Source: Escherichia phage EC100 | Reading direction: 5' to 3' (one strand) | Sequence record: NC_105587.1 | DNA: 64,000 nt | Shown here: piece by piece, positions 1 to 4,531 of the stretch | Layout: the number at the start of each line of letters is the position of its first letter | Position numbering within the stretch: position 1 is the first letter of the stretch | Translations under genes and position numbers: made by a program | Notes under the pieces: model-generated | What the model was told of the DNA's origin: nothing | The model's database searches: none | Seen by the model: only the letters and a program-made list of their open reading frames with translations

Positions 1-256
1 AGCTCAGGGAAACTGGGACAGATTTGTGGCCGTAATTTTCTACATACATAACCATTTTGTAAGATTTACGGGTGGCATTTTTAGCTTTAGGCTTCTGACG
101 AATCGGAGCCGGATTATTCAGTGCTTGCGCAGCCTGAGCATCGGTAGGGTGCTTACGCAGGTGGCGTTCCAGACGAGCTTTGCGATTAGCCTCGGTCTGT
201 GGGAAAGTTTTAACTGTAGTAGCTGCTTGAGTTTTTGCGTTTTTCTGCTTAGCCAT
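1..256 (-). CDS. hypothetical protein, 3' end beyond window (start ATG at 254-256)
   Basis: Manual reverse translation gives an open frame from ATG 256 to the window edge (MAKQKNAKTQAATTVKTF...); AAGGAA Shine-Dalgarno 7 nt upstream; codon usage like other strongly expressed genes here; preceded by a cassette promoter. Confidence 0.45.
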   Translation of the reverse strand, partial: MAKQKNAKTQAATTVKTFPQTEANRKARLERHLRKHPTDAQAAQALNNPAPIRQKPKAKNATRKSYKMVMYVENYGHKSVPVSLS

Positions 257-294
257 TATTTGTTTTCCTTTTTGTTTATCAATTTATGAAGTAT

Positions 295-323
295 ATTATA
301 CGAGAATTTGAAGCGTTTAGCAA
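295..323 (-). promoter_or_regulatory. sigma70-type promoter, TTGCTA-17-TATAAT
   Basis: -35 TTGCTA (318-323 rc), 17-nt spacer, -10 TATAAT (295-300 rc); member of the repeated cassette. Confidence 0.55.
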
Positions 324-331
324 ATGAATTT

Positions 332-781
332 TTAATTTATTAACTGTAAGCTTCTTTTAATTTCAGACCTTACCTGCATCAAAAGAACTCCCAAAGTATT
401 ATCCCCGATGCCTCGGCAAACACCCCAATATGTATCTCCCCAGGTATTTCCTTCAATCAAAGTTGCATTTTCTGTTGCTAACAGTTTATCTCTCAAATCA
501 GGGAGTGCAAACTTTAACCGTAAAAGCTCTAGCATTACATCATCTTTTACCTTATCCCAGTCAGAGCGTAGAGTTAATTTACGTCCTCTACGTTTAGCAA
601 CTCCTGCATTTAGGGAGCGTAGTACATGAGCTACATCATCTTTTTGGTCGGATTTCATAGCCTGAAAAGCATGTTCTACAGTATCAGCATGCCATATTTC
701 ATTTAGATATTCGAAAGTAATTGGTGATAAATAAAAGTTAGATAAGAAACTATAAGCACCTTTAAATTCAGTAATCTTCAT
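332..781 (-). CDS. NADAR (YbiA-like, DUF1768) domain protein
   Basis: 149 aa; N-terminal SNFY motif and ...HAFQAMK... conserved core typical of NADAR/YbiA. Confidence 0.65.
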   Translation of the reverse strand: MKITEFKGAYSFLSNFYLSPITFEYLNEIWHADTVEHAFQAMKSDQKDDVAHVLRSLNAGVAKRRGRKLTLRSDWDKVKDDVMLELLRLKFALPDLRDKLLATENATLIEGNTWGDTYWGVCRGIGDNTLGVLLMQVRSEIKRSLQLIN

Positions 782-1062
782 TTTTTACGCCCCGCATCTT
801 TGGCCTCTTCGGCTGTATAGATATACTGGTAAGCCCCTTTGGAGTAGGCTGGAGCAGTACACAGTTTCTTACGCTCAATCTCTTCTTGAGCTTTTCTTTC
901 GCGTTCAGCTAATTCTTCATCCAGATAAACTAAACGTTGTTCTGGAGGAGGTGGAAGACGTGTTTCTGGCTCACCAATATTAGCCTTTCTTATTTGACGA
1001 GGTGATTGTGCACGTTTTCTCAATGATTTAAACCCTAGTGAATTTGAGTTATAAATTCGCAT
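778..1062 (-). CDS. hypothetical protein
   Basis: 94-aa ORF overlapping the downstream gene by 4 nt; GAGGAGG SD; cassette promoter upstream. Confidence 0.5.
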   Translation of the reverse strand: MRIYNSNSLGFKSLRKRAQSPRQIRKANIGEPETRLPPPPEQRLVYLDEELAERERKAQEEIERKKLCTAPAYSKGAYQYIYTAEEAKDAGRKK

Positions 1063-1089
1063 AAAGCCCTCCTCACTTTCAATACGAAT

Positions 1090-1118
1090 ATTATACTAAA
1101 TTAGAGAGCTTTAAGCAA
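1090..1118 (-). promoter_or_regulatory. sigma70-type promoter, TTGCTT-17-TATAAT
   Basis: -35 rc of 1113-1118, -10 rc of 1090-1095. Confidence 0.55.
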
Positions 1119-1138
1119 GAAGATTTTTAATTTATTTA

Positions 1139-1615
1139 TCACATCTCAGCCATTTCAGCTTCAGTAATAACTGTGTTACACAAAGCATCTACAGCTTCAT
1201 TACCACTAATACCAGAATGTCCTTTAACCTTAATAAAGGTAGGATTAGTATTATGAAAGTTGATATACTGCTGTGTTAATTTAAATGCTTCCTGCCAAAG
1301 TTCTAGATTAAGAGGAACTTCACCATCTGCTTTCTTCCAGCCTTTTCTTTGCCAAGAAAACATCCAACTTTCCATACCATTTTTGCAATAAGCAGAGTCA
1401 GTATAGATAATAATTGGTCTATTATCTTTTTTAACGGACCAACGTAGAGCTTCTACAATAGCCGTGAGTTCCATCTCATTATTTGTAGTTTTAGGACTAT
1501 ACCCAGATTTAGAACCTAAACGATCGTCGTTATCATCATAGACAATAAAACCCCAAGCACCTAAACCCGGATTGCCTTTACATGCACCATCTGTGTAAAT
1601 GTGGAAAACCGACAT
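1139..1615 (-). CDS. rnh: ribonuclease H (RNase HI family)
   Basis: 158 aa; YTDGAC(K)GNPG, TNN(E)MEL, YTDS and KGH motifs of RNase HI. Confidence 0.85.
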   Translation of the reverse strand: MSVFHIYTDGACKGNPGLGAWGFIVYDDNDDRLGSKSGYSPKTTNNEMELTAIVEALRWSVKKDNRPIIIYTDSAYCKNGMESWMFSWQRKGWKKADGEVPLNLELWQEAFKLTQQYINFHNTNPTFIKVKGHSGISGNEAVDALCNTVITEAEMAEM

Positions 1616-1815
1616 TATTTTTCACCTTCTGTTATCTCTTTAGTTTTTGACTGGGTAGGAGACTTGGGTTTTATAGCCTCTAACTCTCTATCCAGAAATT
1701 CCTCTATTGCTCTATCTACAAAATAATCATATGGTAAATGATAATATTCTGATAGAGTAAGAAGTTTGAGTTCTTGCTTTTCTGTTAAATAAACTTTCTT
1801 TCTAAAGAGTCCCAT
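1615..1815 (-). CDS. hypothetical protein
   Basis: 66-aa ORF, start overlaps rnh; cassette promoter upstream. Confidence 0.45.
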   Translation of the reverse strand: MGLFRKKVYLTEKQELKLLTLSEYYHLPYDYFVDRAIEEFLDRELEAIKPKSPTQSKTKEITEGEK

Positions 1816-1841
1816 ATGTGTATCTCCAATTTATAAAATAT

Positions 1842-1870
1842 ATTATATTTAAATTTCACTAAATAAGCAA
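1842..1870 (-). promoter_or_regulatory. sigma70-type promoter, TTGCTT-17-TATAAT
   Basis: -35 rc of 1865-1870, -10 rc of 1842-1847. Confidence 0.55.
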
Positions 1871-1879
1871 ATGAAATTT

Positions 1880-1903
1880 AAATATAATAGCCCCGAAGGG
1901 CTA
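1880..1903 (-). terminator. rho-independent terminator after thyA
   Basis: TAGCCC-cgaa-GGGCTA hairpin followed by a T-rich tract on the minus strand. Confidence 0.5.
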
Positions 1904-1909
1904 TTTAAG

Positions 1910-2749
1910 TTAAGAGGACATTTTAGCTTTAAGAGCTGGATGAGGATCGTACCCCTCTAAATGGAATGACCAAGCTGCCGTATTATTTTCTAGTAAGTCG
2001 TAAAGATCTACAAACTCTGGCATTACTAGAGTTGGTAAAGAACGAGGTTTACGTTTTACCTGTTCTTCTACCTGTTCCATATGGTCATTATAGATATGAG
2101 TATCACCACCACTAAAGATAAGATAACGAGGTTTTAATCCTGTCAGTTTTGCTAATATATGTGTTAATAAAGCATAACTAGCAATATTGAAAGGTAAACC
2201 GAGGAAACAATCTACAGAACGTTGTGTCCATTTAAGGTCTAGGTATCCATCGTTACTTACATAGCATTGGAAGCCGTAGTGACAGGGTGGTAATGCCATC
2301 TTATCCAGTTCAGCAACGTTCCATGCAGAAACTAGATGTCTGCGGCCATGAGGATTATTCTTGAGTCCCTCAATAAGTTCTAGAATCTGATCTCGCCCAC
2401 CAAAGTTACGCCACTGTTTGCCATATACTGGTCCTAGATTACCCTTATCATACCCCATACTTATAGCTTGGTCTTCATAATTTGGAGTCCAGATGGTCCA
2501 CTGCCCTTCGTCACGACCAAATGTGAATACACGTAGATCATGAAGATTTGTGGAACCAGACAAGAACCATAAAAGTTCTCCTACTACTGATTTCCAGGCC
2601 AGGCGTTTGGTAGTTACAGCTGGGAACCCTTCACGTAGGTCGAACTTAGCATAGGAATCAAAAATTGAAACTGTGCCTGTTCCTGTACGGTCATTACGGG
2701 GTTCACCTAGTAAAATTACATCTGTCAAAATTTTTAAATATTGTTGCAT
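1910..2749 (-). CDS. thyA: thymidylate synthase
   Basis: 279 aa; ThyA-like N-terminus (RNDRTGTGT), active-site region and C-terminus. Confidence 0.9.
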   Translation of the reverse strand: MQQYLKILTDVILLGEPRNDRTGTGTVSIFDSYAKFDLREGFPAVTTKRLAWKSVVGELLWFLSGSTNLHDLRVFTFGRDEGQWTIWTPNYEDQAISMGYDKGNLGPVYGKQWRNFGGRDQILELIEGLKNNPHGRRHLVSAWNVAELDKMALPPCHYGFQCYVSNDGYLDLKWTQRSVDCFLGLPFNIASYALLTHILAKLTGLKPRYLIFSGGDTHIYNDHMEQVEEQVKRKPRSLPTLVMPEFVDLYDLLENNTAAWSFHLEGYDPHPALKAKMSS

Positions 2750-3282
2750 TAATAAGTAACCAATTCCTGTACAAATCGCAGGCTGTTATCACTGTTTGCG
2801 CCAACTGCATAGACTAATCGGGTGGATTCATAATTATAATCCAGTATCATACTATCTAGGTGTATATCTGCCTCTAGCTTCTGTTCGCTAAAGATTGTAG
2901 ATACAAAAGCACTTTCTATATGCCCATGTTGGTACATTTCTAGAAGAAGATTAGCTCCGCCTAGAACTACTGTTTGCTGATCTTTTAGAAAAGTAGGTAA
3001 TGTATCACCTATCATTGATATGGGAGTGTAAATATCATGTGTAATATCGTCTGGCAGTGGACGATCAGCACGAATAAATAGGTCAGAAGCTCCAATCATA
3101 CGTTCCCTAACGGCGTATGGAAGAGCTAAATAAGTACCTGCCCCAATAATAATATTATCAGGATTTAGTACATCTAATTGTGAATAAAAAGCATCTAGTT
3201 CTTCTTTAAAAGAACCCCAGGGAAGCTTACCTCGGAGGCCGAACTCCCCATTCGGCCCAACTGCATATATTGCTGTAATCAT
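2749..3282 (-). CDS. frd: dihydrofolate reductase
   Basis: 177 aa; DHFR-like N-terminus (IYAV...GxxGxLPW); sits between thyA and nrdB. Confidence 0.75.
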   Translation of the reverse strand: MITAIYAVGPNGEFGLRGKLPWGSFKEELDAFYSQLDVLNPDNIIIGAGTYLALPYAVRERMIGASDLFIRADRPLPDDITHDIYTPISMIGDTLPTFLKDQQTVVLGGANLLLEMYQHGHIESAFVSTIFSEQKLEADIHLDSMILDYNYESTRLVYAVGANSDNSLRFVQELVTY

Positions 3283-4424: not shown

Positions 4425-4455
4425 TGATTTTCCTCTTTCTCACTATTTCAGGAAT

Positions 4456-4484
4456 ATTATAGCAAATCAGGTAGCGATTAGCAA
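4456..4484 (-). promoter_or_regulatory. sigma70-type promoter, TTGCTA-17-TATAAT, for nrdB-frd-thyA
   Basis: -35 rc of 4479-4484, -10 rc of 4456-4461. Confidence 0.55.
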
Positions 4485-4494
4485 GTAAAATTTC

Positions 4495-4530
4495 AAAGAA
4501 AAAGGAGACCCGAAGATCTCCTTGTTTTTT
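4495..4530 (-). terminator. rho-independent terminator after nrdA
   Basis: 8-bp stem with UUCG tetraloop (AGGAGAUC-uucg-GGUCUCCU) followed by UUUUU. Confidence 0.65.
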
Positions 4531-4531
4531 A

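Follow-up and report, generated by a model that had tools for sequence, protein, structure and literature searches.

An orphan NADAR protein of a T5-like Escherichia phage lies one conservative residue from the published anti-DarTG1 factor AdfN^Bas32

The stretch of DNA analyzed here (64,000 nucleotides of Escherichia phage EC100, NC_105587.1; the window) encodes on its minus strand a stand-alone NADAR protein of 149 aa. This protein is identical in 148 of 149 residues to the product of bas32_0066, the sole difference being the conservative exchange L93I, and in 146 of 149 residues to that of bas33_0070. According to the GenBank locus tags, the two genes belong to the phages IrisVonRoten (Bas32) and HildyBeyeler (Bas33), respectively, and when phage genomes were searched with tblastn, near-identical copies were limited to T5-like phages, these two members of the BASEL collection among them. 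The NADAR of Bas32 and Bas33 has been named AdfN^Bas32 (Johannesman et al, 2025; Nat Commun 16:1598; PMC11825919, of which selected sections are drawn on here and below). With a match of 148/149 residues to the tested AdfN^Bas32, the window protein is a rediscovery and not a new lead: its counter-defense function is already published for a protein one conservative residue away. Very probably, it is an allele of AdfN^Bas32, that is, an orphan antitoxin-like NADAR that would reverse the guanine ADP-ribosylation of phage DNA by DarT1.

Function reported for the near-identical protein

In the sections of PMC11825919 used here, AdfN^Bas32 is reported to neutralize DarT1 toxicity in phage-free cells of E. 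coli (Fig 5 of that paper). When supplied ectopically, which is how AdfN^Bas32 was tested in those sections, it brought three DarTG1-sensitive phages, RB69, T5, and Bas25, back to full titer on DarTG1 hosts; T5 is described as gaining nothing from it against DarTG2, which modifies thymidine. Direct evidence for the removal of ADP-ribose from guanine in DNA exists for AdfN^T4 as well as for other NADARs (the same sections, and parts of PMC11125620), and the published tree sets AdfN^Bas32 apart from both the DarG1 and the YbiA groups (PMC11825919, in the part describing the tree). A literature search for other studies of AdfN in T5-like phages returned Johannesman et al (2025) alone. An anti-defense role against DarT, which the earlier note had put forward as plausible, is thus supported by the near-identity to a protein that neutralizes DarT1 in the published experiments.

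The window and Bas32 share the locus order (rnh, T5.090 ortholog, NADAR, T5.089 ortholog), the protein length of 149 aa, and the genus Tequintavirus. They differ in L93I, and the function was shown for the Bas32 allele, not for that of phage EC122, whose sequence is the one found in the window (see below). The L93I allele presumably behaves the same as AdfN^Bas32, to judge from the sequence, and it appears likely that the native phage depends on its NADAR gene on DarTG1 hosts.

When compared codon by codon with the Bas33 allele, the window gene showed 13 synonymous vs three non-synonymous differences, which marks the ORF as a genuine gene on which purifying selection acts; its nucleotide identity ranged from 95 to 100% across 94 phage records. 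The NADAR proteins of Bas32 and Bas33 are called identical in the relevant section of PMC11825919. The deposited records (L002, 3001–3450, vs L004, 601–1050) differ from one another in two residues (A9T and E104K) and in 12 synonymous codons.

Fold, active site, and related NADARs

The Pfam NADAR family (PF08719, equivalent to DUF1768 and COG3236) matched the protein with 78.5 bits (E = 8.9e-22), well above the gathering cut-off of 35.1 bits, the alignment covering residues 9–142 of the protein and positions 9–163 of the 163 in the profile. The best-fitting PHROGs family, phrog_1017 (E = 1.8e-44), is one of unknown function. Among PDB sequences, phmmer retrieved 2b3w, which is YbiA of E. coli (E = 3.2e-15), and 8bau, the NADAR of Phytophthora nicotianae (PnNADAR; E = 7.8e-7). 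From an input of 112 homologs, which are only ~50% identical to the query, AlphaFold2 predicted a structure with a mean pLDDT of 97.6 and a pTM of 0.91, in which helices and strands follow the expected order and form the YbiA fold, a helical core with two small flanking β-sheets. Foldseek returned the same two proteins as the only significant matches in the PDB: YbiA 2b3w was the best (E = 8.6e-10, TM 0.82, probability 1.00), followed by PnNADAR in complex with ADP-ribose (8bau; E = 1.2e-6, TM 0.78, probability 1.00). The DarT1-linked NADAR from G. lovleyi (8bat) matched weakly (TM 0.51, E = 0.7).

The residues on which catalysis by NADARs depends are present as well. In PnNADAR, E43, K50, and E125, which correspond to E88, K95, and D171 of the E. 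coli C7 NADAR, touch the phosphates and the distal ribose, and mutational analysis showed that guanine-ADPr is not hydrolyzed without them (Schuller et al, 2023; PMC11543638). Their counterparts in the window protein, E36, K43, and E110 (Table 1), are invariant across the 112 homologs, and the active-site motifs read TVEHAFQAMK and LIEGNTWGDTYWG. The earlier note had predicted an ORF at 332–781 whose 149-aa product has a NADAR/YbiA-like core. The coordinates proved exact (ATG start, minus strand), and the core is borne out by the profile search, by the superposition of the model on both solved structures, and by the invariant catalytic residues.

Table 1. Positions of the NADAR gene, its codons for active-site residues, and its surroundings in the window.
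Feature	Position	Strand	Basis or remark
adfN-type gene, stand-alone NADAR (YbiA fold)	332..781	minus	ORF, Pfam, AlphaFold2, Foldseek, 148/149 to bas32_0066
E36 codon, catalytic glutamate (PnNADAR E43, C7 E88)	674..676	minus	alignment to 8bau and 2b3w
K43 codon, phosphate-coordinating lysine (PnNADAR K50, C7 K95)	653..655	minus	alignment to 8bau and 2b3w
E110 codon, last-strand acidic residue (PnNADAR E125)	452..454	minus	alignment to 8bau and 2b3w
94-aa ORF, T5.090 ortholog, phrog_4593	778..1062	minus	first gene of two-gene unit
RNase H (rnh)	1139..1615	minus	upstream neighbor of NADAR gene
Promoter-like cassette TTGCTT-17-TATAAT, probable promoter of 94-aa ORF and NADAR gene	1118..1090	minus	ahead of 94-aa ORF
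Promoter-like cassette TTGCTA-17-TATAAT (T5 promoter P-H207)	323..295	minus	immediately 3′ of NADAR stop

The acidic residue of the last strand varies with the subfamily: YbiA-type and free-standing NADARs have Glu there, the DarT1-associated BC4488/DarG1 proteins Asp, and gp30.3 of T4 His (PMC11125620, PMC11543638). The window protein is of the Glu type and consists of the bare domain without an N-terminal extension. With AdfN^T4 (gp30.3), it shares the YbiA-fold core, the conserved Glu and Lys, and the nature of a phage orphan NADAR directed at DarT1 guanine ADP-ribosylation, but AdfN^T4 has 208 aa and His at the last-strand position, and these features of the gp30.3 "phage NADAR" family (His, about 208 aa) are absent from the window protein. 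In addition, AdfN^T4 needs the context of T-even infection and alone fails to rescue DarT1 toxicity, whereas AdfN^Bas32 works alone, and the published tree presents the two as independent acquisitions (PMC11825919, in the sections comparing them; for the former also PMC11125620, in part). [quoted passage not shown] With Glu at position 110, a domain beginning at residue 9 of 149, no ART gene nearby, and a TM of 0.51 to 8bat, it falls outside the DarG1/BC4488 type. E. coli YbiA (2b3w) is the closest solved structure (36% identity, TM 0.82) and likewise a bare YbiA domain with a Glu-type active site. It confers no protection from DarT1 in vivo (PMC11125620), in contrast to AdfN^Bas32, reported as protective in the sections of PMC11825919 used here; moreover, the window gene belongs to the accessory genes of a phage and lacks a LexA or rib context, and its product scores under the cut-off of TIGR02464, the YbiA family.

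The NADAR gene contains two direct copies of a 13-bp sequence, AAAAGATGATGTA, at 536–548 and 632–644 (minus strand), which encode KDDV at residues 79–82 and 47–50 of the protein. A public variant of 117 aa (P0002, on a 109-kb contig) equals the protein minus residues 51–82, corresponding to a deletion between the repeats, and lacks the near-invariant residues A62, K63, G66, R72, and W75. Because these are lost, the variant is probably a naturally inactivated allele.

Gene order, promoters, and accessory distribution

Over its first 3 kb, the window matches Escherichia phage EC122 (ON185583; a T5-like Tequintavirus of the Demerecviridae) and three sibling phages at 100% identity; for many further T5-like phages, infecting E. 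coli or Salmonella, the value lies between 90 and 97%. Beyond the 94-aa ORF, which has no Pfam domain, and rnh, the same strand carries farther upstream a 66-aa ORF and the genes for thymidylate synthase (thy), dihydrofolate reductase (frd), NrdB, and NrdA; in T5-like genomes, this is the block devoted to replication and nucleotide metabolism. No ART toxin gene was found among the neighbors of the NADAR gene (T5.090 ortholog, RNase H, and T5.089 ortholog), which makes it an orphan. Elsewhere in the block, the gap between nrdB and nrdA (window 4425–4531) measures only ~107 bp; at this position, T5 carries an HNH homing endonuclease gene (hegH, T5.095) and a promoter.

The ATG of the NADAR gene (781–779) overlaps the TGA of the 94-aa ORF in the tetranucleotide ATGA (781–778). 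As this overlap leaves no intergenic space, and only the upstream cassette precedes the 94-aa ORF, a promoter of its own for the NADAR gene is ruled out. The claim of the earlier note that the gene has its own cassette promoter was therefore not upheld: the cassette upstream is shared, and the one at 323..295 serves the next gene. The shared cassette, with an A/T-rich tract upstream and a GAGGAGGG ribosome-binding site downstream, is identical to the annotated "promoter" upstream of T5.090 in the T5 record NC_005859. It had been missed in a generic promoter scan because TTGCTT matches only three of the six positions of TTGACA. The downstream cassette, which also forms the 3′ limit of the segment inserted in comparison with T5, drives the T5.089 ortholog. 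The NADAR gene thus reads as the second cistron of a two-gene unit between two T5-type promoters, and its context makes early expression likely. A convincing terminator between the genes was not found; the scan gave two terminator-like sites against 2.0 expected, neither of them at the 3′ end of the NADAR gene.

The distribution of the gene is patchy. With megablast, it was detected in 94 phage records, compared with 223 for the adjacent rnh, and in T5 the order is rnh, promoter, T5.090, P-H207, and T5.089, without a NADAR gene. On this comparison, the gene is accessory, and the DarTG1 sensitivity of T5 fits its absence there. In a three-way alignment of the window, Bas33, and T5, identity extends to ~70 nt before the end of T5.090; beyond that point, a divergent 3′ end and the 450-bp NADAR gene are present in the window and Bas33 only, and identity resumes at P-H207. 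The 94-aa ORF is 89% identical to T5.090, the differences being concentrated in the last ~12 aligned C-terminal residues. Its tail (window 778–850) ends in …YQYIYTAEEAKDAGRKK, that of T5 in …YQYVSDEEQAKMVGR. Since the divergence starts ~70 nt before the NADAR ATG, the incoming DNA took the place of the upstream gene's 3′ end and thereby created the ATGA overlap.

As to the origin of the gene, no close cellular relative was found in the species-representative genome set, where the best matches are 46–54% identical and scattered over Bryobacterales, Planctomycetota, Clostridia, Pseudomonadales, and a few archaea (e.g., Helarchaeota and Woesearchaeota). With the best cellular homologs at ≤54% identity and taxonomically scattered, a recent capture from an enterobacterial host is unsupported. 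Such scattered and distant relatives are in keeping with the published tree, in which AdfN^Bas32 stands apart from DarG1 and YbiA alike. Two of the cellular genomes, a Bryobacterales MAG (OZ241991; L007, L010, and L024) and an Azotimanducaceae MAG (OZ241908; L025, L042, and L060), contain three NADAR copies each, ~47–50% identical to the phage protein.

A second NADAR lineage was encountered in the Salmonella phage vB_SenS_UTK0009 (Epseptimavirus; L005, 2489–2938), whose protein has 149 aa as well and is only 60% identical. There, the gene is located straight after rnh and before the T5.090 ortholog, whereas that of the window follows this ortholog. Because it occupies a different point in the same neighborhood, the two lineages appear to have entered this variable spot of Markadamsvirinae genomes in separate insertion events. 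In Escherichia phage phiP4, the region corresponding to window 1–3000 is longer by ~280 bp within the rnh–NADAR neighborhood; the additional sequence bears the annotation DksA C4-type zinc-finger protein and is further evidence for a variable accessory-gene spot. Among contigs of 2–3.5 kb deposited as "Listeria phage LM 4-14-1 / 4-11-1," OR848833 and OR847649 carry the NADAR gene with ~98% nucleotide identity; they are probably contaminant or mislabeled fragments of enterobacterial T5-like phages. OR848924, from the same Listeria-labeled set, matches NADAR as protein only (38% identity).

Proposed mechanism, alternatives, and annotation

The following course of events would account for the published phenotype. 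After infection, the NADAR gene would be cotranscribed with the T5.090 ortholog from the T5-type promoter. In a DarTG1 host, DarT1 would ADP-ribosylate the N2 of guanine in single-stranded phage DNA, and replication would be blocked. [quoted passage not shown] Unmodified DNA would result and replication could proceed, while thymidine ADP-ribosylation by DarT2 would be left unreversed. For the Bas32 protein, the proposed glycohydrolase mechanism draws on homology and on the toxin-rescue phenotype.

Two points count against reversal of DarT1 modification. The last-strand Glu, E110, places the protein with YbiA and the free-standing NADARs, not with the DarT1-linked antitoxins (Asp) or AdfN^T4 (His); and the closest structure, housekeeping-type YbiA (36% identity), fails to rescue DarT1 toxicity in vivo (PMC11125620). 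The same Glu speaks for a broader or different target, namely, chiefly other ADP-ribosylations of nucleic acids (C-ADPr on DNA or RNA, G-ADPr on RNA) introduced by host ART toxins other than DarT1. NADARs of the Glu and YbiA types take C-ADPr off ssDNA and ssRNA, whereas DarG1s and the T4 NADAR do not (PMC12945103), and G-ADPr on RNA was removed by all NADARs tested (PMC11833690). The weak NADAR matches to the defense-side models NF053876 and PDC-M42C also point to an ADP-ribose conflict space wider than DarTG1. However, a cytidine-ADP-ribosylating defense of E. coli or Salmonella is not reported in the NADAR literature cited here, and the sole phenotype demonstrated for AdfN^Bas32 in the sections of PMC11825919 used here is the neutralization of DarT1/DarTG1. 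Such a target as the principal one is improbable, and it would add to the reversal of DarT1 modification rather than exclude it. That the T5-like AdfN is a broader eraser (C-ADPr and RNA G-ADPr) protecting beyond DarTG1, and that the rnh spot, with two ~60%-identical lineages in Markadamsvirinae, is a recurrent landing site for erasers, is a tentative and on the whole doubtful extension. The best PDB match to E. coli YbiA and the likewise Glu-type active site could also be taken to mean that the protein is a housekeeping N-glycosidase of the YbiA type, which would destroy reactive intermediates of the riboflavin pathway as the product of an auxiliary metabolic gene. The best NCBIfam match (TIGR02464, "riboflavin biosynthesis intermediates N-glycosidase"; E = 4e-18), the location of the gene amid nucleotide-metabolism genes, and the database labels "GTP cyclohydrolase II / COG3236" and "swarming motility protein YbiA" point in the same direction. 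Yet the TIGR02464 match, at 66.1 bits, stays below the curated equivalog-domain cut-off of 73.7, rib genes are absent nearby, the tree as described in PMC11825919 puts AdfN^Bas32 outside the YbiA-like group, and the accessory spread (94 vs 223 rnh records) fits counter-defense better than core metabolism. A role in riboflavin metabolism is thus very unlikely.

Hardly any weight can be given to a further alternative, in which the protein would neutralize DarT1 not by enzymatic reversal but by binding it stoichiometrically as an antitoxin mimic. There is a precedent, as the Vibrio phage ICP1 encodes a non-enzymatic mimic of DarG (PMC11481870; also alluded to in the discussion of PMC11825919). 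Nevertheless, the invariance of E36, K43, and E110 in 112 homologs argues for selection on catalysis. The sections of PMC11825919 drawn on here add that the Bas32 protein rescues unrelated phages and acts without other phage factors, that binding of DarT1 by NADAR antitoxins is not demonstrated, and, in the words of its authors as given there, that AdfN proteins require enzymatic activity. Enzymatic reversal of the DarT1 modification consequently remains the preferred reading.

The database labels of the gene are diverse: "GTP cyclohydrolase II," "swarming motility protein (YbiA)," "DUF1768 domain-containing protein," "hypothetical protein," "NADAR family protein," and "antitoxin-like enzyme," the last in one recent phage record and "NADAR family protein" in another. 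In the EC122 record, the gene bears the note "Uncharacterized domain COG3236 / GTP cyclohydrolase II." A GTP cyclohydrolase II can be dismissed, as Pfam finds the NADAR domain only and no RibA or GTP_cyclohydro2 domain; the label is a misnomer transferred from RibA-NADAR fusion proteins, just as "swarming motility protein" is one transferred from the phenotype of E. coli ybiA. A component of a defense system was likewise rejected: the PADLOC matches were weak (PDC-M42C, E = 5.6e-7; Drt5, 0.007), and the 44.5 bits obtained for NCBIfam NF053876 fall short of its cut-off of 240. Both sets of matches reflect shared similarity in the NADAR domain and not membership.

As the function was published in 2025, the value of the finding is practical, not conceptual. 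In EC122 and about 90 other T5-like genomes, the annotation of the gene can be changed to AdfN-type anti-DarTG1 factor. The presence or absence of this 450-bp gene would predict the plating of a T5-like phage on DarTG1 strains, including that of candidates for therapy and biocontrol directed at E. coli and Salmonella.
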